A stretch of 64,000 nucleotides of DNA from Anaerolineales bacterium. GTDB taxonomy: Bacteria; Chloroflexota; Anaerolineae; Anaerolineales; UBA11858. Under the pieces are notes generated by a model. It saw nothing but the letters and a program-made list of their open reading frames with translations, made no database searches and was not told the DNA's origin. The stretch covers positions 22,323 to 86,322 of the forward strand of contig JAXHNK010000003.1 in NCBI GenBank assembly GCA_034520505.1, written 5' to 3'. Every line of letters begins with the position of its first letter. Position 1 is the first letter of the stretch. A program made the position numbers and the translations under genes. This document shows, piece by piece, positions 1,540 to 46,697 of the stretch.

Positions 1540-2745
1540 TCAGAATACTTGAGCCGGAACGATCGATCCTGCTTCTATGCTCACCACTCCTTCGGGAATC
1601 CTGACCACTGCATCGCTGTGAGCCATCATCTGCAGCCGGCTTTCATAATCAAGTGGGGTGAAGCTCATCCCCTCCATTCCCCCTTTATTTGACCCCAATT
1701 GCCCATGGATAAACTGGGTCCAAGCCCGCTGACCGCGGATGGTCTCGTTCAGAATTACCGGATAAATGGCCAAACCGGGATTGGCCCAGCCTGCCAGCTT
1801 CATAATTCCCGGCAAGGCCAGCTGGAGGAAAGCCATATGATTGGACGGCGGTCCTCCCGGAAGACAAAAAACTGGTTTTCTGCCCACCAATCCAAAACCC
1901 ACCGCTTTACCCGGCCCCATCCGCACCCGGTGATATGTTTTATCCCAACCCAGGTTTTCCAGCTCATCAACCACCAGATCTCGCTCCCCTTTCCAGGCTC
2001 CACCGCTGGTCAGCACAGCGTCATTTTCTTCCAGCGCTTTAACCAGATTGTCCCGCAATCTCTCTTCATCATCAGGAACTACTCTGGTGGAGACCTGAAA
2101 CCCAAATTTCCGGCACCAGGCTGCCAGAGTAACCAGATTGCTGGCAAATAATTTGCCTGCTTCCAAACGCTTTCCCGGAGCAATTACTTCATCTCCCGTG
2201 GCGATTAATCCAATCTTGGGGATGTGAATGACCGGAACCTCGGCAATGCCCGCAGAGGCCAAATAACCCACCAGAGTCGGCTGAAGGATTTCACCCCTGT
2301 TAAGCAGCTGCTGACCGGGTTTGACATCGGCTCCTTTAGGGAGCACGTTTCTCCCCGGTTTGGCCGTGTTCAGGGCGATGATTTGTTTTCCTTCTCGGCG
2401 AGTGAACTCCTCCGCCAGCACAGCCTGGGCACCTTCTGGAAGGGGAGCACCGCTGAGAATCCTCACCGCCTGTCCTTTCTGTACAACCCCCTCCCAATCC
2501 CCACCAGCCGAGATGCTGCCCACCAGATCAAGCCGGACTTCATGCCGGGGCGAAGCCCGGCTGACATCCTCGGAATGGACCGCAAACCCGTCCTTTAAGG
2601 AAACATCCAGCGACGGCGACCAGATGGCTGCGGTCAGTTCCTCTGCCGCTGCCCGGCCAACAGCTTCCATCACCGGTACATATTCTGCATCCAGCGCGGC
2701 GATCGAATCCAGGGTCAATCGGTAAGCCTCAGAAAAACCAATCAT
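1540..2745 (-). CDS. moeA: molybdopterin molybdotransferase MoeA
   Basis: 401 aa. MoeA-type N-domain (SLDVSLKDGFAV, RILSGAPLPEGA) and MoCF-biosynthesis domain (IGLIATGDE ... LTSGG). Overlaps mobB by 4 nt. Confidence 0.9.
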   Translation of the reverse strand: MIGFSEAYRLTLDSIAALDAEYVPVMEAVGRAAAEELTAAIWSPSLDVSLKDGFAVHSEDVSRASPRHEVRLDLVGSISAGGDWEGVVQKGQAVRILSGAPLPEGAQAVLAEEFTRREGKQIIALNTAKPGRNVLPKGADVKPGQQLLNRGEILQPTLVGYLASAGIAEVPVIHIPKIGLIATGDEVIAPGKRLEAGKLFASNLVTLAAWCRKFGFQVSTRVVPDDEERLRDNLVKALEENDAVLTSGGAWKGERDLVVDELENLGWDKTYHRVRMGPGKAVGFGLVGRKPVFCLPGGPPSNHMAFLQLALPGIMKLAGWANPGLAIYPVILNETIRGQRAWTQFIHGQLGSNKGGMEGMSFTPLDYESRLQMMAHSDAVVRIPEGVVSIEAGSIVPAQVF

Positions 2746-3251
2746 TTATTCTCCAGATAAGTACTCTCTACCAGATCTGCCAATGAGTCAACATCATTGA
2801 GGTCAAAGACAGGAACATCGACCTCCAGGTCCACATCCGCTGCAATCGCCAGACGCTGGTCTGGATCGCTGATCAGCGTCAGGCCGATTTCTTCCCGAAC
2901 CACCTCCAGGGATGGCTGATGAGCGCTCTTATAACCCTCAACCAGGATCAAATCCACCGCGGAAAACTCCTTCAGGATCTGATCAAAGGACATCTCTTCT
3001 GCCAATAAACGATAAGAAGCAATTTTATCCGGCGCAGCGATGATCACATGTTCGCTTCCCGCCCGGGCATGCCGCCAGCTGTCCTTCCCCGGTTTATCGA
3101 CATCAAAACCAGCGTGGGAATGATGCTTTAAGGTCCCGATCCTGTAGCCCCGGGCTTTCAGCTCCCCGATCATCTTCTCCATCAGGGTAGTTTTCCCTGC
3201 CTTTGATTTTCCAATGATAGTCACTACGGGTATCGCCATAACGCCTCCCAT
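2742..3251 (-). CDS. mobB: molybdopterin-guanine dinucleotide biosynthesis adaptor MobB
   Basis: 169 aa. Walker A GKSKAGKTT and MobB block GTLKHHSHAGFDVDKPGKDSWRH. Confidence 0.9.
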   Translation of the reverse strand: MGGVMAIPVVTIIGKSKAGKTTLMEKMIGELKARGYRIGTLKHHSHAGFDVDKPGKDSWRHARAGSEHVIIAAPDKIASYRLLAEEMSFDQILKEFSAVDLILVEGYKSAHQPSLEVVREEIGLTLISDPDQRLAIAADVDLEVDVPVFDLNDVDSLADLVESTYLENK

Positions 3252-3267
3252 TCTATTTAATCAGCCC

Positions 3268-3999
3268 TCAGGCTAAAATGACAAAGAACACAATCACAAC
3301 CAGCGCAGCGGGAAACACAACCCAGTCCCAGGTGCTGACCAACAGAGGCAGGGGACGGGTTTTTTCCGGTGAAAAAGCCCGCGATTCAGCGGCCAGCGCG
3401 ATTTCTTCTGCCCGGAGAAGCGCGTTGGAAATCGTGGTCAGCGCGAAGAGCCTGATCCCCCGCCACCACTTTCTTCTCAGACCGCCGCGCATCTTCAGGC
3501 AGCGCCAGGTCTGAGTACATGATCTTTTCAAGCAGGGCATGATATTCAAAGCCACTCCCATGGAAAAACCCAGCCCCTTTAATCCCAGGCGTTCCAAAAT
3601 TCCCGCCAGAGCAGCAATTTCGACATTGGCAGTGAGCCCTTCCAGGGCACCGATCACCACCAGAAAGCGGGAGGTGATCTGCAAAGCAGCCTGGACCCCG
3701 GTTGAGGAAAATCCCACTCCCAGGAAAGATAGATCCACGTCGCCTAAAAAGAAAACAGGGGGAACGGATAACAGGGCGAGGAGGATCAGGCGTCGTCCTG
3801 CCAACAGCCGGCGCCAGATTCCAGGATAAATCAAGAAGAGCACCAGCAGGCAAAATCCGGCTGCGTAAAGAATTAATTTTCCAGGAGTAAGCATCACCAT
3901 ACCCAGGGCCCAGGAAAAGATTCCGAGATGACCCACCGTCCCCAGGGAAAAACCTTTTCTATTCATGCTCATCCCCTCCTCCTCTAACTTCTGCTGCAT
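3268..3999 (-). CDS. ECF transporter transmembrane (T) component, CbiQ/EcfT-like
   Basis: 243 aa, multi-pass, with an Arg-rich cytoplasmic coupling region (LLRAEEIALAAESRAF). Last gene of an A-S-lipoprotein-T set. Confidence 0.7.
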   Translation of the reverse strand: MQQKLEEEGMSMNRKGFSLGTVGHLGIFSWALGMVMLTPGKLILYAAGFCLLVLFLIYPGIWRRLLAGRRLILLALLSVPPVFFLGDVDLSFLGVGFSSTGVQAALQITSRFLVVIGALEGLTANVEIAALAGILERLGLKGLGFSMGVALNIMPCLKRSCTQTWRCLKMRGGLRRKWWRGIRLFALTTISNALLRAEEIALAAESRAFSPEKTRPLPLLVSTWDWVVFPAALVVIVFFVILA

Positions 4000-4002
4000 C
4001 TT

Positions 4003-4446
4003 TTATCTCACCTGCAGTTCAGCAAGCAATCGAACGTTGAGTTTACCTTCTTCACCGGGAAGCACCATCCGGAAAGTGCCTTGATCACCATCCAGGGGAC
4101 CTTCTTCCCGGGCATAGGCTACCAGGACATCTTCTTGTTGGAAAATTTCCGGCGTGTAGGTCACGCTGTAACCATCCGCAGCTACAGCGGTCACCGTGGA
4201 GATTTCTCCTGATGCATAACCGCTTTCCTGAAGCAGTGCTATCAGAGGGACCCCGACATAAGTCTCACCTTCAAACTCTGACCGGGCTGCGCCCAGGGTC
4301 TGCATCTCCTCAACAGTATAAATGACTTCCCTCCCATCTCCAGTGATCAGCAGCTGATTGACTTCCTCTACCTGGGGGATACATCCGGAACAACCAATCA
4401 ACAACAGACCGAACAACAAAACATAAAAAGCTTTTCCTCTGATCAT
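4003..4446 (-). CDS. lipoprotein with short SUOX/YedY-like 'oxidoreductase molybdopterin-binding' type domain (tentative)
   Basis: 147 aa with lipobox LLIGC. The mature part shows the pattern GVPLIALLQESG...AADGYSV...DVLVAYA...GPLD...TFRMVLPGE, which I recall from small Mo-pterin-binding-fold proteins. Overlaps the S-component gene by 4 nt. Needs HMM confirmation. Confidence 0.55.
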   Translation of the reverse strand: MIRGKAFYVLLFGLLLIGCSGCIPQVEEVNQLLITGDGREVIYTVEEMQTLGAARSEFEGETYVGVPLIALLQESGYASGEISTVTAVAADGYSVTYTPEIFQQEDVLVAYAREEGPLDGDQGTFRMVLPGEEGKLNVRLLAELQVR

Positions 4447-5084
4447 CCGTCTTTTCTCCTCGAACTTGACTTTTCCTCAAACTCCACACCGCTCCTCCCC
4501 AGCCGTTGATAGAGCTGCCCTCCCAGCGTCCAACCTGTCCAACCGGCAAGAGCTCCGATCAGGAAATAAATAATCACCAACCCAGCCACAATCCACAACA
4601 CGGTATTTGTACCCAGTCCCAGCAGCCGGCTGCCGCTGCGCAGCAAATCCAGCCAGACATCCACAATCCCGCGCCCGAAAAGCAGCGGATTGGTGATAAA
4701 GGGCTGAACCAGCACCCACAGCACACCTGCTCCTCCGGCGAGGACCATGATACCCCGGTTGGGCCGGTCTTTAAGGGAGAGCACTGCCTCCGCCACTGCT
4801 GCTTCTGTGATAATGCCGACCATGGGTCCGATGACCACACCTCCCAGGGTGAATAATTTTAGCAGCGCAGCGATGACCCCGATGAAGAGCACTGAGCCTT
4901 TCTGCGGCACAAAGACCCGGCCGATCAAGGCAATGGTCAGCCCGATGGCAGCCAGGATCACCCCGCTGATCGGGATCCTGAGGGACTTCAAAACAGTACC
5001 CAGTGTCATTTCCGAAATCCCCCACAGGGTGCCAAAAACTGCCAGGGTCACCAGGTCTCTCGTGGAATAGTTCATAATAAACAC
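4443..5084 (-). CDS. ECF transporter substrate-capture (S) component, specificity unknown
   Basis: 213 aa, about 6 TM helices, Gly/Ala/Ile-rich, located between the ECF ATPase and T genes. No specific S family recognised. Confidence 0.6.
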   Translation of the reverse strand: MFIMNYSTRDLVTLAVFGTLWGISEMTLGTVLKSLRIPISGVILAAIGLTIALIGRVFVPQKGSVLFIGVIAALLKLFTLGGVVIGPMVGIITEAAVAEAVLSLKDRPNRGIMVLAGGAGVLWVLVQPFITNPLLFGRGIVDVWLDLLRSGSRLLGLGTNTVLWIVAGLVIIYFLIGALAGWTGWTLGGQLYQRLGRSGVEFEEKSSSRRKDG

Positions 5085-5099
5085 TCCTTCTTCAATTAC

Positions 5100-6536
5100 C
5101 TAGCTGACAGATCCCCTCATGGTAATCCTCCCCTCTTCCATCAGCAGCACTCGATCGGTATAATGATGGACCAGTTTGTAATCGTGAGATATCAGTAAAA
5201 TTGCTGTTCCCTGCTCGTTTAGCTGCCGGAGATAATTCATCAGCTGCTCCAGGTGACCCCAATCCTGACCCAATGTGGGTTCATCGAGGATCACCAGCCG
5301 GGGTTGAATCGCCACACAGGCAGCCAGCGCGGTGCGCAGCTGCTGTCCCAGGGAAAGGGTAATCGGTCGGCGGTCGACAAACAGCCGAAGATCAGTTTCC
5401 CTGAGCACTTTTTGGTGTCTTTCAGGGTCAAAACGACCGTAATTCCGGGAGGCGAATGCCACTTCTTCATCTACCGTATCAGCAAAAAGCTGTTCCCGGG
5501 GATCCTGAAATAAGAGGGCAACATCCAGACCGGGTCGGGGTTGTTTTTTGCCCTGGAAGTAAATTTTTCCTGATCGGGGTTTAACCAATCCGGCAGCGGT
5601 CAAAGCCAAAGTCGATTTCCCTGAACCATTATCACCCACCAGGGAGACAAACTCACCGGGATAGAGGGTAAGGTCAATATCCTTGATGATAATGTTTCTT
5701 CCATAACCAGCGCTGATTTTTTCCAGAGAGAGCAGGGGAAGACCAGGACGCTGCGCTGCCCTCCCATTGCCTTCGATCAGGCTGGCCCAGGAATTAAGCG
5801 GTTGATTTACGGGACGGCGCAGGCCGTATTGATCCCGGATGGCCGCATTTTCCAGCACCTCATCGGGGCTTCCCCAGGCTGCAAACCGGCCCTGATCCAT
5901 CACATACACCTGATCAAGATGAGGGAAAGCGCCTTGCAGTCGGTGTTCGACCATCAGGATAGTGACCCCATATTCCTCCTTCATCCTGGTCAGGGCATCG
6001 ATCACCTGATTCGTGCTGGAGACATCCAGAGAAGCAGTTGGCTCATCTAAGATCAGGATCCGGGGCTGCATGGCCAGCACGGCGGCAACTGCCACCAGCT
6101 GCTTCTGCCCGCCTGAAAGTTGATCCGGGCGTTTTTCTTGGAGGTGGGCTATACCAACCGTCTTCAGGGTCTCACTTACCAGGCGCTGGACTTCTGCTTC
6201 ATCTTTTCCCAGATTACGGAGGCCAAAAGCCACCTCTTCTCTAACGGTGAGATGGAACAGCTGGGAACTGGGATTTTGAAAAACCAGGCCCACCTTGCAA
6301 GCCAATTCATCCAGCGAGGCATCCTGGGTGTTCATCCCGTCCACCAGGATGCTGCCTTCCAGCTGACAGGATATGGCATGAGGGATCAAACCACTGAGCG
6401 CCTGGGCCAATGTGCTTTTTCCGCAGCCTGATGGTCCGGTAATCAAAACCCATTCTCCAGGGTTCACCTGCAGCGAAAGGTCTTTTATCACGCGCTCGTT
6501 TCCATAACTGATGGATAGATTCTCAACCCTGATCAT
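5100..6536 (-). CDS. ECF transporter ATPase, fused tandem ABC domains (EcfA-EcfA')
   Basis: 478 aa with two complete ABC cassettes: GPSGCGKST/LSGGQKQ/ILDEPT and GDNGSGKST/LSLGQQLR/ILDEPT. Confidence 0.9.
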   Translation of the reverse strand: MIRVENLSISYGNERVIKDLSLQVNPGEWVLITGPSGCGKSTLAQALSGLIPHAISCQLEGSILVDGMNTQDASLDELACKVGLVFQNPSSQLFHLTVREEVAFGLRNLGKDEAEVQRLVSETLKTVGIAHLQEKRPDQLSGGQKQLVAVAAVLAMQPRILILDEPTASLDVSSTNQVIDALTRMKEEYGVTILMVEHRLQGAFPHLDQVYVMDQGRFAAWGSPDEVLENAAIRDQYGLRRPVNQPLNSWASLIEGNGRAAQRPGLPLLSLEKISAGYGRNIIIKDIDLTLYPGEFVSLVGDNGSGKSTLALTAAGLVKPRSGKIYFQGKKQPRPGLDVALLFQDPREQLFADTVDEEVAFASRNYGRFDPERHQKVLRETDLRLFVDRRPITLSLGQQLRTALAACVAIQPRLVILDEPTLGQDWGHLEQLMNYLRQLNEQGTAILLISHDYKLVHHYTDRVLLMEEGRITMRGSVS

Positions 6537-6574
6537 ACTTTTGGTTGGACTCCTTTTCTTTCCTTCCTGATTTC

Positions 6575-6613
6575 AATGACAAAACGCCCACCAGGATACA
6601 TAACTGGCGAGCG
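6575..6613 (-). terminator. intrinsic terminator forming the expression platform of the upstream structured leader
   Basis: The minus strand reads CGCUCGCCAG-UUAUGUAUC-CUGGUGGGCG followed by UUUUGUCAUU. That is a 10-bp stem (2 G-U pairs), a 9-nt loop and a U-tract, 38 nt upstream of the ECF ATPase start. Confidence 0.6.
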
Positions 6614-6645
6614 TTTTACGCTGCTCGTTGTCTTTGTATCCTTTC

Positions 6646-6799
6646 CAATTCAATCCGCTCACCAGCAGATATCGGGAGGTCGGGACATTTCTGTTCCCTA
6701 CCCTCACTTTCCCCGTTATCCACCAGGGAAGGGTCGGCCCCTCAACCATAGCAGCAATCACCACGTTCTACCTTAGGTTGAAGGTCTCGGATTCGATTG
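6646..6799 (-). ncRNA. candidate Moco (molybdenum/tungsten cofactor) riboswitch aptamer
   Basis: A long closing helix pairs 6788-6799 with 6646-6657 (CAAUCGAAUCCG / CGGAUUGAAUUG). Next come CCGAG, then hairpin ACCUU-CAACCU-AAGGU followed by AGA, then AACGGGGAAAGUGAGGG, and later GACCUCCCGA. These resemble my memory of conserved Moco-motif blocks (CCGAG, hairpin, GGAUAG, GGAAAGG, CCUCC). The context is a mobB/moeA operon. Not verified with a covariance model. Confidence 0.5.
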
Positions 6800-7021
6800 T
6801 CAGCTCAGATCTTTAAGATCTCGTTTCACATCCTTCACTTCTTCCAGCACATCCAGCTCTGTTTTCAGCTCATCCGTAAGGCTGCTGAAGTAGGCTTTCA
6901 CCTCGCGGATCAATCTCCCACATTTCCGGGCCGTGATCGCAATCCGCTCCGGTCCGAGGACAAACACCGCCAGCAGCAGGATCAACATCAGTTCCGGACT
7001 GCCGATATCAAATATTTCCAT
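6800..7021 (-). CDS. tatA: twin-arginine translocase subunit TatA/E
   Basis: Start moved to the internal ATG preceded by GGAGG. MEIFDIGSPELMLILLLAVFVLGPERI gives a TM helix and Gly-Pro hinge, followed by an amphipathic helix and an acidic tail. Confidence 0.8.
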   Translation of the reverse strand: MEIFDIGSPELMLILLLAVFVLGPERIAITARKCGRLIREVKAYFSSLTDELKTELDVLEEVKDVKRDLKDLS

Positions 7022-7022
7022 C

Positions 7023-7340
7023 TTACTTCCTCCTCGCTGTCCTGGCCAGAATGATGCTGAAAACATATAAACCCAGTAAGGGCAGCATGACCAGCCCCAT
7101 GTTAACGGGATCCACCGTGGGGGTAATGGTCGCGGCCAGCACGGAAATCCTCACCAGGGCATAACGCCACCCAGCCAGCAGCTGCCCCGCAGTCACCACC
7201 CCCATTTTAGCCAACCCAAAAGCGATTAAAGGCATCTCAAAACTAAGGCCGATCCACAGCATCAGCTTGGTGACAAACTCAAAATAATTTTGCGGCCGCA
7301 CCTGGGTTGTAATCCCCGGAAAATTAGTTCTTAGATTCAA
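7023..7340 (-). pseudogene. tatC: tatC 3' fragment (C-terminal ~100 aa only)
   Basis: PGITTQVRPQNYFEFVTKLMLWIGLSFEMPLIAFGLAKMGVV...TPTVDPVNM matches the TatC TM4-TM6 region (E. coli GVQVSTDIASYLSFV...FGVSFEVPV..., recalled). The listed start is a TTG. The frame hits a stop 21 nt upstream at 7362-7364, exactly where GC content collapses. About 140 N-terminal residues are missing. Confidence 0.75.
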
Positions 7341-7640
7341 CTCATTAGTACAACAACAAGATCATTAAAATGATAAGCTGGAGTAGAACAGAGTGCCTTT
7401 CAAACGACCAGGTTTAAGGAGCACTCGTGAACACCTACAAACAGCTCGCTCTGTGTGCCTTTGGCAACCTAATTTCAACGATACCAGATATCTACCCTTT
7501 TGGAAAGTGATCAAAATTAAACGGAGATAGCCAAAATCATCAGGGGCAAAAATCTATTATTTGCTTAGAGCTAATATGGAACCGCAGCCAACGTGGATAT
7601 CATCCCAAACAACCTCATTGGAAAGCCATCAAGGGACACA

Positions 7641-7665
7641 GTTGGGATCGCAGAAGGATCCCAAC
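7641..7665 (-). terminator. perfect 9-bp hairpin downstream of the molybdoenzyme operon (possible terminator, no U-tract)
   Basis: GTTGGGATC-gcagaag-GATCCCAAC lies 175 nt past the stop of the 1071-aa gene. Neither strand has a T-run after it. Confidence 0.25.
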
Positions 7666-7838
7666 TCAAACGCGGGGCTGGATCGAGGAAAAGATTCGAC
7701 CAGACTGGAGCCCGGAATAAATCTCGATTGGGTTGAAGAAATCCATAAAAACCAATGGCCGAGAAAATGCTTGATTATCCTGGCACCTGAAATCGTGTTA
7801 TGCAAACTAAGTGATGGTACCCTTGAAACGAAGTTAGA

Positions 7839-10800
7839 TTAAACTTTAGTGAGATTCACTCTGGTATCATAGAACGAAACACTACCGCCGACAGGATCCA
7901 CCATACAAGTATTATTTCGTAATGATGAATCCGTCCACATTGCAGCATTTGCGTGCACGCCTTTGGCTCTTCTGGGATCACCTTCAATAGTTTCACCATC
8001 AATATCAAAATCATCTGCACCGGTTGCCCAATGACCAAACCCGAGCACAAAGGATATTACTCCAGGTCGCATAGTTTCGGTCGGAATTACTTTACCAATG
8101 ATGTCTTTGGTTTTTCCATTTTTAAAATCCCATCTACCTTCGGTATTTGTAGCGCTTGTAATTCTAACCAGATCATCTTTTTCTAATTTTAATCGTCGAG
8201 CATCTTTAGGATTAATCATTATTCCATTTTCGGGCATAATCGGCTGCAGCCAGTATGCCCCAATTGTTCGGGATTTTGTCTGCGTAATTGTACGGTTCGT
8301 TATCATACTAAATTCATATCCCTCCGAAAGTTCCTCGACTGTTTCCTGGGCGTAATTCATTATCGGAAGATACTTTGCATAACCATAATAGGGTTTTCCT
8401 GTTGCAGCATATTTTTTTGTCGCAGTTTTTTCTTGATATAGATTTAATAAAGCCCCGAAACGGTGAGCCAGTTTATCACCTTCAAAGGATTTATTGTGGT
8501 CCTCATACCTGCCTCCGCGGTTCAAAATAAAAACTACCTTTCGCCAGTTGTCTTCTCCGACAACTTGTTTCCATCTTTGTTCGTCAAAAACAGATTTATC
8601 AAGATGCCTTCTTGCCTGGGAAAAGACCTCAAGCTCGCGGTCATCTGCCTCAGGTACTGCTGATTCTGTGTGAGCGAGATTCGCAATTGCTCTTAGATAT
8701 AGATCATCCGGTTTCGTAATATCCAACCCTTCACCGAGTGCGTTCTTCCCGAATGCTTTCAATCCAAGCTTTTTATTCAAGGCCATAAACATGGATTCCA
8801 GGCTGCACGGAATCTCTTCACCATCAACTTTCACTTTTTCAGGAATGGGTGAAATTACAGGCTGCCGCACATTTTCAACTTTTGCCGCCATATTGGGATG
8901 AGAACCCTGAAATTCCCAGCGTTCTAAATATGACAGATCAGGGAAGATGTAATCGGCATACATTGAAGTGGAACCAATGATGATGTCACTTGTAAAGAAA
9001 AGAGGAAGTTTATCAACGTCGGCAAGCACATCAATATTTGTATGTCCCGCGGGTAACGCATAGGTTGGAGCTCCCATATAAAAGAATAAGGCTTTTACGG
9101 GATATGGATATGCCTCCCCGATACTTGGAATTATTTCTTCATAAATATCTGATGACAGCGGATACCAATTTCTTTTTGCCGGATAACCTTCGAAGATCGT
9201 AGTCTTTTCGTAATCAACACCATGACGAATTGAGCTGATCCCAAAACCAGAAATCTTTTCATCTTGTTTCTTTAAGTCAAAGACACCGCCTTTCGAACCG
9301 TCGTATTTATACGTGGTTGCTTTGGACATTCCACCCGCCCAATCATAATTGCCAATCAACATATTGAGCGACATCCAACTTAGAACATTATAAAAACCAT
9401 TCGTGTGCTGTGCAGGTCCGCGGTGAATATCGACTGCGGCTTGTTTGCCATAGCTTGTTAATTCTTTTGCAACTTCAGTTACATCTTTCTCTTTAACACC
9501 GGCAATTTCACACCATTCGGTAATCGAATGTTCTTCCGAAGATTCTTTAAGAATTTGCAGCCCGGATTTTACTTTTACTTTGTTACCTTCCTTATCGCTA
9601 AGTTCTGTATCAACTAAAAGGTCACCGTAAACCGGGTTCTTTTCATCATTAGGATCAACCCAGGTTGGTTTACCGTTTACCATAACAACCAGGAATTTCT
9701 CCTCATACTCCGAACCGTTAAATATTCTTTTTTCAGGAGATTTCAAACCAAAATCGGCAGCACGTATCAATTTGCCCGGTTCTCCATCTTTTATTTCCAC
9801 AAGATAAGGCGCTGTTGTCCAGCTCGTTTCATTTGCAGCTTGAGCGGCTGCTTTATTTGCATTGCGGAGAAACTTTTCATCGTAACGTTTATTGCTAATG
9901 ATCCATTGAATCATTGCGAGAGCAAGCGCTGCATCCGTACCGGGTTTTAAGGGAAGCCATTGATCTGCTTTGCTGGCAAGTTTTGAGAATCTTGGATCAG
10001 CAACTGCAATTTTTGTGTATCCGCTCGCAAGATTTTTTGTCAATCTAACTGTTCGGTTTGTAGGACCGTAATTAGCTTCAAATAAGTTAGCTCCAACAAA
10101 TAAAACATATTTGGCGTGTTCGAGACTCGCCTGCCAATAAAATTTGCTGCCTCCCTGAAATTTACCCCCTTGATATTGCTCGCTAATTGCCTTGCAGGTA
10201 AAGTAGAGTGACCCCTGACATACTGTAGTGTGCCCGTGAAGATTCGTTGTTCCGAAAGCAGATTGAAATCTTTTAAAGAAATCTTTCCTTCCGTTTTTCA
10301 ATCTTCCGTACGCCATTACAAATTGATTATTCTTCGGTCCTAAATCAGGATGTTCAGGATCAATTAGCTTATCGAGATCCCCTTTATGTTTTTCCTTGAA
10401 TCTTTCTACCAGTCGTTTTTTCTCGCTTCCGTCTTTTTCCTCCCAAATTTCGTCAATGTCTTTAGCCATTTCCCGGGAAACTTTTGAATCGCGCAAAGCC
10501 ATAATATCTTTAAGGCCTTCAACAACCCTGTTCTCTTCACCCGGAACATCGGCAAATAGTTTTCCACCTTCAACTATTTCTGATATGGCTTGCTCAAAGG
10601 GAATTGCAACCCACGTATTTTCACCACGCTTACCGGCACGTTTCAATACTTTCCTTATTCGATAAGGATCATAAGCGATTTGGACACCGGCTTGTCCTTT
10701 TGGACAGAGTCCGCCATCAATCCTCGCGGCTTCATCAAGATCAGTCTTCATTGGAAGGTGCGGCACCATTGTCCAGGGGTTGTAAGGGTTCCCATCAATC

Positions 10801-11054
10801 TTGGCAAGAATACCATCTTGATTTTTTGCTTTCATTCCACAGCCGGTATTACAATTAAGACATACAGAATAAATAAAATTTTCCGGTTTGTTCAAAGTAT
10901 ATTCAGCATCGGGTCGTTTGCTATTGATTATTCCCTGCTGCGTTTGAGCCGATATTTTTCCCTTACCGAAAACAGTTGCCAGAACACCGTTTCCAAGTAA
11001 AGCACCTTTAGCCAGAAATTCTCTGCGGGATGAATCCTTTTTGTTGTTTTTCAT
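7839..11054 (-). CDS. Tat-exported bis-MGD molybdopterin oxidoreductase catalytic subunit, Psr/Phs/Ttr family (TtrA-like by size and gene order)
   Basis: 1071 aa. Twin-arginine signal SRREFLAKGAL, N-terminal FeS motif CLNCNTGCG...CPKG, and a probable Mo-ligand Cys in HGHTTVCQGS. Overlaps the NrfD gene by 4 nt. Substrate cannot be read from the sequence. Confidence 0.85.
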   Translation of the reverse strand: MKNNKKDSSRREFLAKGALLGNGVLATVFGKGKISAQTQQGIINSKRPDAEYTLNKPENFIYSVCLNCNTGCGMKAKNQDGILAKIDGNPYNPWTMVPHLPMKTDLDEAARIDGGLCPKGQAGVQIAYDPYRIRKVLKRAGKRGENTWVAIPFEQAISEIVEGGKLFADVPGEENRVVEGLKDIMALRDSKVSREMAKDIDEIWEEKDGSEKKRLVERFKEKHKGDLDKLIDPEHPDLGPKNNQFVMAYGRLKNGRKDFFKRFQSAFGTTNLHGHTTVCQGSLYFTCKAISEQYQGGKFQGGSKFYWQASLEHAKYVLFVGANLFEANYGPTNRTVRLTKNLASGYTKIAVADPRFSKLASKADQWLPLKPGTDAALALAMIQWIISNKRYDEKFLRNANKAAAQAANETSWTTAPYLVEIKDGEPGKLIRAADFGLKSPEKRIFNGSEYEEKFLVVMVNGKPTWVDPNDEKNPVYGDLLVDTELSDKEGNKVKVKSGLQILKESSEEHSITEWCEIAGVKEKDVTEVAKELTSYGKQAAVDIHRGPAQHTNGFYNVLSWMSLNMLIGNYDWAGGMSKATTYKYDGSKGGVFDLKKQDEKISGFGISSIRHGVDYEKTTIFEGYPAKRNWYPLSSDIYEEIIPSIGEAYPYPVKALFFYMGAPTYALPAGHTNIDVLADVDKLPLFFTSDIIIGSTSMYADYIFPDLSYLERWEFQGSHPNMAAKVENVRQPVISPIPEKVKVDGEEIPCSLESMFMALNKKLGLKAFGKNALGEGLDITKPDDLYLRAIANLAHTESAVPEADDRELEVFSQARRHLDKSVFDEQRWKQVVGEDNWRKVVFILNRGGRYEDHNKSFEGDKLAHRFGALLNLYQEKTATKKYAATGKPYYGYAKYLPIMNYAQETVEELSEGYEFSMITNRTITQTKSRTIGAYWLQPIMPENGIMINPKDARRLKLEKDDLVRITSATNTEGRWDFKNGKTKDIIGKVIPTETMRPGVISFVLGFGHWATGADDFDIDGETIEGDPRRAKGVHANAAMWTDSSLRNNTCMVDPVGGSVSFYDTRVNLTKV

Positions 11055-12214
11055 AATGACGTCCCTAATTTCTTTTGTGTGAAATAAGATAGAAGTTTTA
11101 TTCCAAAATAAACCAACGCAACTCCAAAAGCTCCGATAAACAGCGCAACTAAATACTCGTTTAACGTTGCTGAATAATCAAATCGTAATCTCTCATGGTA
11201 AAAAGCATCTTGTAAACCTTTTAATTCAGCGACCGCCTGACCAGGAACAAGTACGTTTAATCTTGCAGAAACAAATGTAACCGCCACTATAAAGGCACCT
11301 GTTCCCACAGTTTGATAAGTTTTACCTTTCCACAATACATAAAGAGCTATTAATCCACCGCCCAGATGAACAAACCAGAAGACCCACCAGAATGGTCCGA
11401 AAAGAATTAATTCAACTGCCTCTCTTATATGTGAATTTGGCGACCAAAAGACTAAACTGTATTCGGCAAATTCTGCCAGGAAGTAAAAAAGAATGCCGCC
11501 AATAATAACATAACGAAGCATTTTAAATGGCTGCTGTGATAAGTCAAACTCTTTATAATGAAGAAAAGTATAGACCAGTAATAAAACTGCGCCGCCAGAA
11601 GTAATAGCTGATACTAAAAACAATATCGGCAGCAGTGGTGAACTCCAAAACGGTTTAGCATCAACAACACCAAAGAAAGCGCCACTCTGGCTCGGGAAAG
11701 CTATGGAAAACATAAATGCCAAACCCATTAATGGAAGCATCCAGCGAGATTTGTCATGTAAATCGGTCTGCTTTTCTTTCTTCAGTGAAAGCCAAAATAA
11801 TCCAGCTGCACAACCGATAAACAAAGAATACATCCAGGCGTTAAACGCCATCATCGAACCAAAGTTTGGTGCATACAAAATGCGGGCAAATCTGAAAGGC
11901 TGCCCCAAATCTAACCAGATGGAGAACAACCCGGTTATCACTGCTGCGACTGAAACAACAAGTATGACCCGGAAATTCTCCCTGAATCCAGTAAGATCAA
12001 AAACATAACCAAGCGTTCCAATTGCAAACACACCGCCCGAAATTCCAACAAAATGGAAGTAAAGTGCAACCCACAATCCCCAGGGGACGTAACTTCCGTA
12101 GCCAGCTAACTTTTCTCCTGTTGCAAATTTCAAAATCAAACCAGCTAATCCGATGATAAAAACAATCAACCAAATACGTGATACATATTTATAAGTTTTT
12201 GTCAGCATAATCAC
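11051..12214 (-). CDS. NrfD/PsrC-family integral membrane quinol-interacting subunit
   Basis: 387 aa, about 9-10 TM helices, located between the FeS and catalytic subunits. Confidence 0.85.
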   Translation of the reverse strand: MIMLTKTYKYVSRIWLIVFIIGLAGLILKFATGEKLAGYGSYVPWGLWVALYFHFVGISGGVFAIGTLGYVFDLTGFRENFRVILVVSVAAVITGLFSIWLDLGQPFRFARILYAPNFGSMMAFNAWMYSLFIGCAAGLFWLSLKKEKQTDLHDKSRWMLPLMGLAFMFSIAFPSQSGAFFGVVDAKPFWSSPLLPILFLVSAITSGGAVLLLVYTFLHYKEFDLSQQPFKMLRYVIIGGILFYFLAEFAEYSLVFWSPNSHIREAVELILFGPFWWVFWFVHLGGGLIALYVLWKGKTYQTVGTGAFIVAVTFVSARLNVLVPGQAVAELKGLQDAFYHERLRFDYSATLNEYLVALFIGAFGVALVYFGIKLLSYFTQKKLGTSL

Positions 12215-12215
12215 C

Positions 12216-13124
12216 TCACAACAAATAAATTACTGTTGGCTTTGTGCCTTTTTCTTCGAGCAGCTTAACCTGATTCGGTTGACGTGCCATTTCCGTAACG
12301 AGTGAGTCGGGATCATTTGCATCGCCAAAATAATTTGCTCTTCCAATGCAAGTTGTAACACACATAGGAAGCTCACCTTCATTCAAACGATGCAAGCAGA
12401 AATGACATTTACGCGCATTACCCATTGGTGAATTATGTCCTTCACGATTCCAGCTTTTCCCATATTCATTGTTAGGAAGAGTTTCATAGGGTTGTAATTC
12501 AGGAGTATCTTCAGTGTAATATTCGCCGAAGTCGCTCGTTCTGGCGCCGTAAGGGCAGGCCGTTAAACAATAGCGACAGCCGATACATTTATCGTAATCA
12601 ATTTGGGTAATTCCGTCCGGTCTTTTCCATGTTGCATTAACAGGACAAACCGAAACACAAGAAGGATTTTCGCACTGCATACAAGGACGCGGAAAATACC
12701 TGAGCTGAGTATTCGGATATTCTCCCATTTGCTCCTCAACCACAGGACGGTAGACGACTCCGGGGGGAAGTTTATTTTCGGCAATACAGGCAACCGTGCA
12801 AGCGTGGCATCCAACACATTTTCTTGTATCAATGACCATCTTCCATTTTCTTTCTTCAACCGGCTTTGCCAGCGCTTTTTTTAATTCTGCTTGCATTCTG
12901 ATGAGAACATCAGATTCTTCGCTTACCTGGACCGATTTAAATTCAGGAATATCCCGGATTGTATCCGCGCCCGTTGGTGTTTCAGGGGGGGGACTTAATC
13001 TTGCTGCTGTAACCGCTGCAACAGATACAGCAACACCTCCCCCAACAACTCCAGCGGTCTTCAAAAAATCTTTTCTGGTAATTTCCTCGCTGATTGATTT
13101 TTTTTGTTTTGTTTCGTCTGCCAT
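12216..13124 (-). CDS. 4x[4Fe-4S] ferredoxin-type electron-transfer subunit with its own Tat-like signal
   Basis: 302 aa. The N-terminus has [15 protein letters not shown] (an RK variant of the RR motif). Four Cys clusters are present: [41 protein letters not shown]...CVTTC. Confidence 0.9.
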
Positions 13125-16409: not shown

Positions 16410-16425
16410 TCAATTGGAGGATAAG

Positions 16426-16725
16426 ATGAGCCGCTCCCCCCTTAAACCAGCTGTCGCCCACAGGATGGCCGATCTTTTCGCCGCGCTCAGCGACCCCAAC
16501 CGGGTGCGGATAATCGCCGCGCTGCTGGATAATGAGGTCAACGTGGGGGATTTGGCCCGGAAGGTAGAGATGAGCGAATCAGCGGTCTCCCATCAGCTGC
16601 GCACTTTGCGGCAAATGCACCTGGTCCGCCGGCGAAAAGTCGGCCGGGAAGCCTATTACACCCTGGATGACGATCATGTCGCCGACCTCTACCGCCGGAG
16701 CCTGGATCATATCCTTCATCATTAA
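16426..16725 (+). CDS. ArsR/SmtB-family metal-responsive transcriptional repressor
   Basis: HTH region LSDPNRVRIIAALLDNEVNVGDLARKVEMSESAVSHQLRTLRQ. Start set to the ATG 5 nt after GGAGG; the listed ORF starts at a TTG at 16414. Confidence 0.85.
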   Translation: MSRSPLKPAVAHRMADLFAALSDPNRVRIIAALLDNEVNVGDLARKVEMSESAVSHQLRTLRQMHLVRRRKVGREAYYTLDDDHVADLYRRSLDHILHH

Positions 16726-16761
16726 AACTTCCCCCAGCCTACAGAAAACTAAGGAAACAGC

Positions 16762-19152
16762 ATGCGAGAAAAAACGGTCTCCATTGAAATCCCCCTGATC
16801 ATGCCCGGACTGGAGCAGGAATGCGGCCGCTGTCTGGACCAGGTTCAGCATACTCTTCAGGAGCATAAAGGGGTGCTGTCCACTCACCTGGATCGAGAGC
16901 GTGAGCAGCCGATCCTGCACATTCACTACCTGCCCGATCTAATTTCCCTGGAAACTGTCCGCCGGATCACCCGGGAAACCGGCCTGGACCTGGTCAAACG
17001 CTACCGTCATGAAAGCATACCTCTCCAGGAGCTGGATAACGCCGATCAGGCGCCGGGGATCCGCCGGGCGCTGGAAAACCTGCCGGGGATGCTCCACGCC
17101 CGGGTAAATTACGCAGCCGGATTAGCCTTTGTCGCCTATGAAAAAAAGAAATTAAACCCGGAGAAGATCGCTTCTGCCCTGAGAAAGATGGGGGTGAGGC
17201 CGGTCAACTGGCCGGAAGCAGCCCCAGCTGAGAGCGCTGATAAACGAGCAGCCGCCTTTTTCCCCCGCTGGATCGAGGAGCGTTTTGAACTGGTCCTGGT
17301 GGGTGTAACTGGAATCCTCATCCTTCTGGGCTGGGGCGGAGATCAGTTCTGGGCTTTCCCCGATCCATTCCCCCAGATCCTGCTGATGCTGGCTTATCTG
17401 AGCGGGGGGATCAGCCTATTCCTGCGGGCAGTGCCCGGTTTATTCCAGGGGAACTTCGACACCGACGTTCTGATGCTGGCCGCCGCCGGAGGCGCAGCGG
17501 TTCTCGACAAATGGGCCGAGGGCGCTTTTCTGCTCTTTCTTTTCAACCTGGGCCATGCCGGGGAACATTATGCGTTGAACAAAGCCCGGACCGCGGTTAA
17601 CGCATTGGGAGAGCTGCTGCCCCAGACTGCCCGGGTACGGCGGGAAGGTGAAATCCTGGAGGTACCGGTGAAAACCGTAAACCCCGGTGAACGAGTGCTG
17701 GTCCGTCCCGGCGAACGGATTCCAGTGGACGGCAGGGTCCTCTCCGGGGAGAGCACGGTCGATCAAAGTCCCATCACCGGGGAAAGCGTCCCGGTGAGGA
17801 AAACGCCGGGGGGCGAAATTTTCGCCGGGTCTGTCAACCAGGATCAAAGCCTGGAAATCGAGGTCACCCGGGCCGCTGAGGATAACACGTTAGCCCGGGT
17901 GATGGATCTGGTGGCTGAAGCCCAGAGCCAGCAAAGCCCCACCCAGCGATTCACCGACCGGTTTACCTCCTGGTTTGTCCCCGCGGTGCTGATCCTGACC
18001 CTGCTGGTGATCACCGTCCCCCCCCTGATCGGCTGGTTGTCGTTCCAGGACAGTTTTTACCGGGCGATGCTGCTGCTGGTCGCGGCCTCTCCCTGTGCCC
18101 TTGCCCTGGGAACCCCGGCAGCAGTTCTGACCGGAATCGCCCAGGCCGCCCGCAACGGGGTGTTGATCAAAGGCGGGGTCCACCTGGAAAACCTGGGCAG
18201 GATCCAGGTCCTGGCCCTGGACAAAACCGGCACCCTGACCGAGGGCAAATTTCAGATTACCGATCTCATTCCCATCAACGGCACAACGCCGGAAGAGCTC
18301 CTACGGACAGCCGCGGCCGTAGAAACCGAATCCAGCCATCCCCTGGCCGCGGCGGTGGTTGACGAAGCCCGGGCCCGAAGCCTCACCCTACCGGCGGTGG
18401 GACTGCTGGAAAACTTTTCCGGCCGGGGGGTGGGCAGCGAAATAGGCGGCCAGCAGGTGTTGATCGGCACCCTCGATTTGCACCGGGAAAAAAGCGAGCA
18501 CAACCCCGGAAAGGATGTTATCAGGCTGGTGAAGCGCTTGGAAGAAGAAGGAAAAACCACCATGACCGTCCGCCGGGGAGAAAACTATCTGGGTGTGATC
18601 GCCCTGGCGGACATTTCCCGGGCGGGGGTCAAGGAAACGTTAACTTCCCTGCTGAACCTGGGGATCAAAAAAATTGTCATGCTGACTGGGGATAACCGCC
18701 GGGCTGCCGAGAAGACCGGGAAAGAACTGGCGGTCACTGATATCCGTTCCAACCTGCTCCCCGCCGACAAACTGACCGCGGTCAAGGAGCTGGAGCGGGA
18801 ATACGGGGAAATCGGCATGATCGGAGACGGGATCAACGATGCACCGGCCTTGGCCGCGGCCACCGTGGGAATTGCCATGGGCGGAGCCGGGACAGCGGCT
18901 GCTTTAGAAACCGCTGATATCGCCCTGATGGCTGATGACCTGAGCAAACTGCCCTTTGCCGTGGGGCTGAGCAGGGCCAGCCGGCGAGTAATCCAGCAAA
19001 ATTTAATCATCTCCCTGGGGGTGATCGCACTGCTGATCCTGAGTTCGGTCCTGGGCTGGTTTCCGCTGGGATGGGCCGTCGTTTTTCACGAGGGAAGCAG
19101 CATCGCCGTGGTGCTCAACGCGCTGCGTCTGCTGGGGTATAAGGAAAGATAA
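16762..19152 (+). CDS. heavy-metal translocating P1B-type ATPase (SPC / HEGSS signature, P1B-4-like)
   Basis: 796 aa with DKTGTLT, TGDN and GDGINDAP. The TM metal motif is ASPCAL and a late TM carries HEGSS. The N-terminus has one CxxC (ECGRC) and one degenerate HMA-like repeat. Confidence 0.9.
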   Translation: MREKTVSIEIPLIMPGLEQECGRCLDQVQHTLQEHKGVLSTHLDREREQPILHIHYLPDLISLETVRRITRETGLDLVKRYRHESIPLQELDNADQAPGIRRALENLPGMLHARVNYAAGLAFVAYEKKKLNPEKIASALRKMGVRPVNWPEAAPAESADKRAAAFFPRWIEERFELVLVGVTGILILLGWGGDQFWAFPDPFPQILLMLAYLSGGISLFLRAVPGLFQGNFDTDVLMLAAAGGAAVLDKWAEGAFLLFLFNLGHAGEHYALNKARTAVNALGELLPQTARVRREGEILEVPVKTVNPGERVLVRPGERIPVDGRVLSGESTVDQSPITGESVPVRKTPGGEIFAGSVNQDQSLEIEVTRAAEDNTLARVMDLVAEAQSQQSPTQRFTDRFTSWFVPAVLILTLLVITVPPLIGWLSFQDSFYRAMLLLVAASPCALALGTPAAVLTGIAQAARNGVLIKGGVHLENLGRIQVLALDKTGTLTEGKFQITDLIPINGTTPEELLRTAAAVETESSHPLAAAVVDEARARSLTLPAVGLLENFSGRGVGSEIGGQQVLIGTLDLHREKSEHNPGKDVIRLVKRLEEEGKTTMTVRRGENYLGVIALADISRAGVKETLTSLLNLGIKKIVMLTGDNRRAAEKTGKELAVTDIRSNLLPADKLTAVKELEREYGEIGMIGDGINDAPALAAATVGIAMGGAGTAAALETADIALMADDLSKLPFAVGLSRASRRVIQQNLIISLGVIALLILSSVLGWFPLGWAVVFHEGSSIAVVLNALRLLGYKER

Positions 19153-46514: not shown

Positions 46515-46587
46515 TGGGCCCGGCAGGATTCGAACCTGCGACCTGGCGGTTATGAGCCGCTCGCTCTGACCGCTGAGCTACGGGCCC
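46515..46587 (-). tRNA. tRNA-Met (anticodon CAT; elongator-type, or Ile2 if lysidine-modified)
   Basis: The manual cloverleaf is GGGCCCG/TA/GCTC-AGCGGTCA-GAGC/G/AGCGG-CTCATAA-CCGCC/AGGTC/GCAGG-TTCGAAT-CCTGC/CGGGCCC/A. 73 nt, no encoded CCA. Confidence 0.85.
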
Positions 46588-46625: not shown

Positions 46626-46697
46626 AGCGGGTGACGGGATTCGAACCCGTGAATGTCAGCTTGGAAGGCTGATGCCTTACCACTTGGCCACACCCGC
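46626..46697 (-). tRNA. tRNA-Gly (anticodon TCC)
   Basis: The manual cloverleaf has acceptor GCGGGTG...CACCCGC with discriminator T, anticodon arm TCAGC-CTTCCAA-GCTGA and T-arm ACGGG-TTCGAAT-CCCGT. 72 nt. Confidence 0.85.

Follow-up and report, generated by a model that had tools for sequence, protein, structure and literature searches.

Genomic context of the riboswitch

The window analyzed here is a 64-kb stretch of contig JAXHNK010000003.1, from an uncultured Anaerolineae bacterium of a salt pan, and all coordinates refer to it unless a related locus is named. On its minus strand, a gene of the TatA/B/E family (6800-7021) is followed by an element of the molybdenum cofactor (Moco) riboswitch class, an intrinsic terminator, and an operon that encodes a transporter of the energy-coupling factor (ECF) type together with MobB and MoeA. 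The TatA-family gene encodes 73 amino acids beginning with MEIFDIG, matches PF02416 with 28.5 bits (cut-off 21), and is intact. Its product is 69% identical to TatA of the closest comparison locus used below, L001 (CAZTWV010000007.1, Anaerolineales). The spacer that holds the riboswitch is 263 nt long and runs from the tatA UGA stop (6802-6800) to the ATG of the fused ECF ATPase (6536). An earlier note, made from the sequence of this DNA, had described a 263-nt spacer that begins at the tatA stop and separates tatA from an operon with ECF, mobB and moeA genes. The coordinates and the gene assignments bear out this description.

Identity of the aptamer

A search of the whole 64-kb window with Rfam places the Moco RNA motif (RF01055) at 6623-6804 on the minus strand, with 47.0 bits (gathering score 36). 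The match covers the whole model (positions 1-135 of 135) and has an E-value of 4e-8. Only three matches in the window pass their gathering thresholds, this element and two tRNAs. In a permissive scan of 6400-7000 with an E-value threshold, no other family scored more than 15 bits, and neither cobalamin nor any other riboswitch class matched. The 237-nt region folds 5.1 standard deviations better than dinucleotide shuffles, none of which (0 of 200) equaled it. The earlier note had called a Moco-class aptamer on this strand and in this place, and had proposed a search with the Moco covariance model, a control for cobalamin or another class scoring better, and a comparison of orthologous loci. 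The first search came out above the gathering threshold, the control was negative, and the comparison shows helices that are conserved and covary in related genomes. By every sequence-level feature the element belongs to RF01055, in the P3-containing (Moco-type) form. It very likely functions as a riboswitch of the Moco class, with an OFF platform based on a terminator.

Structure of the aptamer

The structured core of the aptamer extends from 6794 to 6636. In the Rfam alignment, P1 joins GAAUCC (6794-6789) to GGAUAC (6641-6636) across one A-A mismatch. P2 (6784-6739) is seen both in the Rfam alignment and by covariation, and pairs CCUUCAACC (6784-6776) with GGUUGAGGG (6747-6739). Inside P2 lies the 11-nt tetraloop receptor, formed by CCUAAG (6777-6772) and UAUGG (6750-6746). 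The P3 stem-loop (6734-6706) pairs UUCCCUG (6730-6724) with CGGGGAA (6715-6709) in 7 bp plus outer pairs, as read only from the Rfam alignment, where it carries a 25-nt insert, and from single-sequence folds. P4 (6703-6677) includes the GGGA/UCCC pairing and is capped by GAAA (6691-6688) within CAGAAAUG (6693-6686). The 3' side of P4 continues into the conserved CCUCCCGA (6679-6672). A clade-specific hairpin, AUCUGC/GCGGAU (6670-6653), extends P5 and is identified by covariation. The last segment (6648-6636) holds the junction and the 3' strand of P1, where UUGGAAAGG (6648-6640) leads into GGAUAC(A), the switching sequence.

The tetraloop and its receptor, the stems and the junctions are the hallmarks of the family as given by Regulski et al. 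2008 (PMC2408646). The junction blocks CCGAG, AGGG, CCUCCCGA and GGAAAGG are all present; across 15 aligned aptamers they vary little or not at all, GGAAAGG being invariant. The conserved blocks that the earlier note listed (CCGAG, CCUAAG with UAUGG, the GGGA/UCCC part of P4 with its GAAA loop, and CCUCCCGA) are found in the sequence; two of its helices are mis-assigned. Its 12-nt closing helix, between 6788-6799 and 6646-6657, pairs at 10 of 12 positions, the two mismatches being internal and adjacent, and is at odds with P5: the CGGAUUG that it uses is the 3' arm of the covarying P5 hairpin in all relatives. Its ACCUU/AAGGU hairpin would occupy the P2 5' strand and the receptor, and is rejected because P2 covaries in relatives.

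Conservation and covariation in related loci

Related loci were collected from an alignment of 611 homologues of the 213-aa membrane protein of the operon, which gave 55 loci in named genomes. Chloroflexota (Anaerolineae, Ardenticatenaceae) account for nearly all of them, and a few belong to Gemmatimonadota, Marinimicrobia/Fidelibacterota, Ignavibacteriales and others. Of the 14 nearest loci, 11 have an aptamer upstream of the operon that passes the Rfam gathering score; contig ends account for two of the three exceptions. Among the 13 most distant loci, 4 have one. A covariance model, R1, was built from 15 of these aptamers. It scores the window aptamer at 116 bits, the window sequence being itself in the R1 seed. 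R1 finds one match per locus in 42 of the 55 loci and in the window, always on the operon strand and upstream of the ATPase gene, and 28 of the matched loci lie outside its seed.

The window and the 42 loci give 43 aptamers for comparison. In their alignment, which was fitted to the model and is biased in its pair counts toward it, standard pairs make up 91.4% of cells, and 39-49% once the partners are slid by 1-3 columns. Double changes occur in 25 of 30 pairs, and 0 of 500 shuffles attain the observed values. By helix, double changes are found in 10 of 10 tested pairs of P2, 7 of 10 of P4 and 6 of 6 of P5, in which 97.8% of cells are paired; P1 is paired in 97%. An alignment made without the model (MAFFT with RNAalifold) recovers the same helices (P1, P2, P4 and P5), with compensatory changes in 22 of 30 pairs. 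Besides the bias of the fitted alignment, the weakness of P1 speaks against a working switch, this helix having five standard pairs and one A-A mismatch in the window.

Two side observations come from this set. FmdE-family genes with a C-terminal zinc finger lie just upstream (L002, 3157-3807) or downstream (L016, 3124-3858) of the aptamer. FmdE is named after its place in the operon of molybdenum formylmethanofuran dehydrogenase, and represents a further molybdenum-linked gene in the regulon. In two Marinimicrobia-type loci, L050 (3006-3126) and L051 (3018-3138), the aptamers are short (121 nt), with Rfam scores of 70 and 50 bits. Tandem genes resembling the S component follow about 2.3 kb downstream, and no ATPase like that of the window was detected there. 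An alignment gap in both aptamers takes in the P3 region as well as the 3' half of P2, and they may be tungsten-type variants that lack P3.

Expression platform

An intrinsic terminator (6614-6575, minus strand) follows the aptamer. It consists of ACGCUCGCCAG (6614-6604), a 9-nt loop and CUGGUGGGCGU (6594-6584), followed by UUUUGUCAUU, which ends 39 nt before the start codon of the ATPase gene. The 11-bp stem has 7 G-C, 2 A-U and 2 G-U pairs, and the hairpin alone has a predicted energy of -21.4 kcal/mol. It does not appear in the list of the terminator scan tool because its loop exceeds the limit of 8 nt set in that tool. A terminator at this place had been claimed before, and the stem and UUUUGUCAUU confirm it. 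The stem occurs at the same position in five related loci (L001, L013, L021, L011 and L026) with compensatory changes, among them CUCGCC/GGUGGG, CUUGCC/GGCAAG, UUCGCC/GGCGAA and CUCGCC/GGCGAG. These changes were read by eye because MAFFT shifts the register in L026 (alignment A4).

An anti-terminator (6641-6594, minus strand) competes with this stem. GGAUACA (6641-6635) pairs with UGUAUCC (6600-6594), and inside this helix an inner hairpin joins GAGCAGCG (6626-6619) to the 5' arm of the terminator. The earlier note had seen the GGAUACA/UGUAUCC pairing and took it to sequester that arm. The alternative pairing exists; UGUAUCC, however, is made up of the loop of the terminator and the first base of its 3' arm, and the 5' arm is captured by the separate inner hairpin. 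The anti-terminator uses the 3' strand of P1, which couples the platform to the closing helix of the aptamer. The unconstrained minimum-energy fold contains the anti-terminator (-89.7 kcal/mol), and forcing P1 to form yields P1 together with the terminator (-83.5 kcal/mol). The default state is predicted to be read-through because the anti-terminator is the minimum-energy structure.

In the proposed mechanism, GGAUACA would pair with UGUAUCC when no ligand is bound and GAGCAGCG would capture the terminator 5' arm, so that no terminator forms and the polymerase enters the operon. Binding of the cofactor would hold the weak P1 (GAAUCC/GGAUAC) shut, the 11-bp terminator (6614-6584) would form, and transcription would stop at UUUUGUCAUU. 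We infer that the element is probably a transcriptional OFF switch that represses the transporter and cofactor-maturation operon. Such logic fits feedback repression of genes for Moco supply. One further complementarity was seen in the region: UGACAA over the tatA stop (6796-6802) can pair with UUGUCA in the U-tract of the terminator (6576-6582) and does so in the minimum-energy fold, which is probably a coincidence.

Other members of the clade use a different platform. In many loci an additional gene for a THEP1-type NTPase (PF03266, about 185 aa) is the first after the aptamer and starts inside the aptamer 3' end (L003, 3967-4518; L006, 3970-4518; L014, 3961-4539; L038, 3976-4560; also L009, JACKCC010000009.1, Ardenticatenaceae). 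The GGAG of the P1 3' strand is the ribosome-binding site of this gene, and the ATG follows 5-6 nt later. Where the THEP1-type gene is present, the platform is predicted to be translational, as at Escherichia coli moaA. The window and the five loci that share its terminator have no such gene.

Junction with tatA

The tatA UGA stop lies 5 nt ahead of the 5' strand of P1. A TatA-family gene is the upstream neighbor in the window and in L001, L003, L006, L009, L020 and L030. The distance from the tatA stop to the start of the aptamer model is -5 nt in both the window and L001, -1 nt in L009, 15 nt in L030, and 109-151 nt in L003 and L020. The start of the aptamer at the tatA stop, as described earlier, is real, and a junction with no spacer is common to L001 and L009. 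Other upstream genes verified with Pfam also abut the aptamer, encoding FmdE (L002) and Fer4 proteins (L023, L042). There are at least six Pfam-verified cases in which the aptamer abuts the stop of a same-strand upstream gene, with TatA in three, FmdE in one and Fer4 in two.

A terminating ribosome covers about 12-15 nt past the stop codon. In the window, L001 and L009, the P1 5' strand (5 nt after the stop) is expected to fall within this footprint. Translation of tatA could bias the switch toward read-through in lineages with no spacer.

Disruption of tatC and the low-GC block

Upstream of tatA, the tatC gene is a fragment (7026-7328, minus strand) that retains only the C-terminal ~100 residues and matches positions 134-215 of 215 in the TatC profile. 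It aligns only to residues 160-260 of TatC from L001, where the gene is intact and encodes 260 aa. The window has no intact tatC beside tatA. From 7329 to about 13,250, the GC content is ~41%, against 52-62% in the flanks. This block of about 6 kb carries a ttrBCA-like cassette, composed of a TtrA-like molybdoenzyme of 1071 aa with a twin-arginine signal (7839-11054), an NrfD-like subunit (11051-12214) and a Fer4_11 subunit (12216-13124). The block looks horizontally acquired. Between the TtrA-like gene and the tatC fragment, about 500 bp (7340-7838) have no long open reading frame on the operon strand. A remnant of an insertion sequence transposase was considered there on account of an rve-like string, YHPKQP, on the plus strand, and was dropped when no Pfam match was found in the frames tried.

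The tatC/low-GC junction is not a product of chimeric assembly, as it is crossed by an independent 515-nt contig of run X1 (7246-7760). The assembly graph of run X2 branches at 7325-7329, and the loose end from the tatC side encodes VMIPAAVPF, residues 149-157 of TatC. Because of this loose end, the salt-pan sample appears also to contain a strain whose tatC is intact. A TtrA homologue with 51% identity is found in L034 (292-3519, Chloroflexi bacterium 44-23), directly upstream of the riboswitch and ECF operon of that genome, and the order of molybdoenzyme and then riboswitch seems to recur independently.

Source of the transcript

With the aptamer starting at the tatA stop and no promoter-like site in view, the transcript most likely comes from upstream through tatA. 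A consensus scan of the minus strand from 6800 to 7770 found no sigma-70-like site with at least 9 of 12 matches. The tool-based promoter scan of 6000-8000 returned one minus-strand site, at 7801-7774 (ATAACA-16-GATAAT) just after the TtrA-like gene, and none near tatA. Entry of transcripts from upstream through tatA is somewhat favored over a promoter inside tatA. If the transcript does arrive from upstream, the element would also be a conditional end of the upstream transcription unit.

The earlier note had gone further and described an internal attenuator of a transcript initiated at the tat promoter. This reading is plausible, in that no sigma-70-like site was found and the junction without a spacer recurs in L001 and L009, and it is doubtful in this window because tatC is a fragment and the original tat promoter is gone. 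Three sources are left here for transcription into the aptamer: the inserted cassette, the promoter-like site at 7801-7774, and a cryptic promoter. The loss of the natural tat promoter through truncation of tatC weakens the case for entry through tatA. The promoter scan is consensus matching; the consensus may not suit Chloroflexota promoters, and a promoter in the 3' end of tatA is possible. A search for RNA runs of the organism returned none, and the metatranscriptome X12 shared a few words with the region and placed nothing on it.

It is possible, and less probable than entry from upstream, that the same riboswitch is driven by a concealed promoter within the last ~40 codons of tatA and is an ordinary 5'-leader element. 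Promoters within coding sequences are common. About a dozen related loci with a spacer carry a good sigma-70-like site that ends 36-50 nt upstream of the aptamer, and a dedicated promoter would on this account be the norm in the clade. The intact operon below a truncated tatC is also easier to understand if it is independent of the tat promoter. In the 200 nt before the window aptamer, however, the best match reaches 7 of 12 and is misplaced, with a -10 element, GACAAT (6801-6796), that would initiate transcription inside P1. The loci that are likewise tight against tatA (L001, L009 and L030) show only 6-8 of 12 matches, at implausible positions, which speaks for read-through out of the upstream gene in such lineages, in line with the earlier note.

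Ligand specificity

Moco as the ligand is suggested by family membership and by the P3 rule. RNAs with P3 are associated only with Moco genes (PMC2408646), and the presence of P3 assigns the window element to the Moco type rather than the tungsten cofactor (Tuco) type; the rule is a bioinformatic correlation only (PMC2408646), which tempers the assignment. The Mo/W distinction depends solely on this P3 correlation, and Rfam treats RF01055 as a combined Mo/W family. MoeA and MobB act on both metals. The short aptamers of the distant L050 and L051, with their gap over the P2 3' half and P3, leave room for a tungsten form in this set of loci. That the window aptamer senses Tuco or both cofactors, with an operon that serves tungsten metabolism, is nonetheless improbable given that P3 is present here and that the adjacent TtrA-like enzyme comes from a molybdoenzyme family.

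That the match arose by chance, or that the element is a decayed relic or assembly artefact without a regulatory role, might have been suggested by a Rfam score just 11 bits over the threshold and by the adjoining rearrangement that cut tatC. This reading is effectively refuted by the full-length Rfam match with all hallmark motifs, by the conservation and covariation of one copy at the same position in 42 related loci, by the conserved terminator and intact downstream operon, and by independent contigs from two runs that cover the region, including a 922-nt X1 contig that spans 6163-7084.

The regulated operon and its transporter

The operon downstream of the aptamer is intact and lies on the minus strand. 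Its first gene encodes a fused double ECF-type ABC ATPase of 478 aa (5100-6536), which matches TIGR04520 and TIGR04521 above their cut-offs and contains two ABC_tran domains. The second encodes a membrane protein of 213 aa (4443-5084), the putative S component, with similarity to YkoE only at the edge of detection. It is followed by a lipoprotein of 147 aa (4003-4446) with a molybdopterin-binding domain of the sulfite-oxidase type (PF00174, 30.6 bits; cut-off 24) and by the T component of the CbiQ family (3268-3999; PF02361, 37.1 bits). The last two genes are mobB (2742-3251; PF03205, 140.9 bits; TIGR00176, 143 bits) and moeA of the molybdopterin molybdotransferase family (1540-2745), which has MoeA_N and MoCF_biosynth domains and matches the NCBIfam MoeA/Glp models below their cut-offs. 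The Moco-related genes are mobB, moeA and that for the protein with the molybdopterin-binding domain.

The S component of the window has no match in Pfam, NCBIfam or, by profile, the PDB. Among its 611 homologues, some are labeled as COG4721-type and one has a precomputed PF09819 assignment. A distant homologue in L055 matches PF09819 with 21.1 bits, below the cut-off of 25.2. The lipoprotein has a lipobox, LIGC, as read from its sequence. Its mature part contains no cysteine, so it lacks a molybdenum-ligating cysteine. A search of the PDB gave one marginal match for it, to sulfite dehydrogenase 2xts (E = 0.085).

About 55 genomes, most of them from Anaerolineae, have the ECF-type operon, and in 42 it lies under the Moco aptamer. 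The order of ATPase, S component, lipoprotein and T component is kept in most Chloroflexota loci (L001-L045). Within L001-L045, the lipoprotein gene gave no match in eight loci, and two more are cut by contig ends. In related loci, mobB and/or moeA often follow the ECF genes.

Literature searches for an ECF system linked to Moco, pterins or Mo/W found no description in the searchable literature, and a 2013 survey of riboswitch regulons has no category for Moco uptake. The transporter under control of the riboswitch seems undescribed, and is a better lead than the riboswitch itself. Tentatively, the operon may encode an undescribed uptake system for a Mo- or W-related substrate, which could be an oxyanion, a pterin precursor or the cofactor. 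Judged from the gene products, such a system would consist of an ECF-type module with a divergent YkoE-like S component and an extracytoplasmic, cysteine-less lipoprotein of the sulfite-oxidase fold.

Other features of the window

Two tRNA genes (46515-46587 and 46626-46697, minus strand) lie 39 nt apart and score 71.8 and 73.6 bits with Rfam. On the plus strand, 16414-19152 appears to encode an ArsR/SmtB-like regulator (103 aa) followed by a heavy-metal P-type ATPase (796 aa), as judged by eye from the translations.

Comparison with known systems

The usual description of a riboswitch is that of a 5'-leader element; here a position within a transcription unit recurs. The riboswitch itself is another member of a known family, which any Rfam scan would flag. 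The novelty is mostly around it, in the recurrent operon-internal placement and in the uncharacterized ECF-type system. The riboswitch ties this uncharacterized transporter to molybdenum-cofactor metabolism. The B. subtilis ykoFEDC operon encodes a YkoEDC-type (group I) ECF transporter and is under the control of a thiamine pyrophosphate (TPP) riboswitch. The window system shares with the YkoEDC type a fused double ATPase, a T component of the CbiQ type, and a small putative S component under a coenzyme riboswitch. It differs in that the riboswitch is of the Moco rather than the TPP class, the S component is only marginally YkoE-like, and there is an additional extracytoplasmic lipoprotein with a sulfite-oxidase-type fold. 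The ECF transporters for vitamins were likewise first recognized through riboswitch regulons (PMC3766115).

The E. coli moaA leader, a described member of RF01055 (PMC2408646), shares with the window element the five stems, the GAAA tetraloop with its 11-nt receptor, P3, and the CCUCCCGA and GGAAAGG junctions. With the family as a whole, the element shares Moco-related genes downstream and, as predicted for the window, OFF-switch logic. The E. coli element lies in a 5' leader with mapped promoters and acts by sequestration of the ribosome-binding site, whereas the window element relies on an intrinsic terminator and starts at the stop codon of the gene before it. Platforms of the terminator type have been described for the Moco RNA family, and Chloroflexota is not among the groups named in the abstract of that 2008 paper (PMC2408646). 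The window aptamer also carries clade-specific insertions in P2, P3 and P5 and spans 182 nt, against the 135 positions of the RF01055 model.

The closest comparison is L001, in which tatC, tatA, aptamer, terminator, ECF operon, mobB and moeA follow one another as in the window. Its aptamer likewise overlaps the tatA stop by 5 nt, and its terminator is homologous. In L001, tatC is intact (260 aa), whereas the window keeps residues ~160-260. In L009 and many other loci, by contrast, the THEP1-type NTPase gene comes right after the aptamer, with the predicted translational platform. The 43 orthologous aptamers, with termination in some and sequestration of the ribosome-binding site in others at the same locus, offer a natural series on the exchange of expression platforms.

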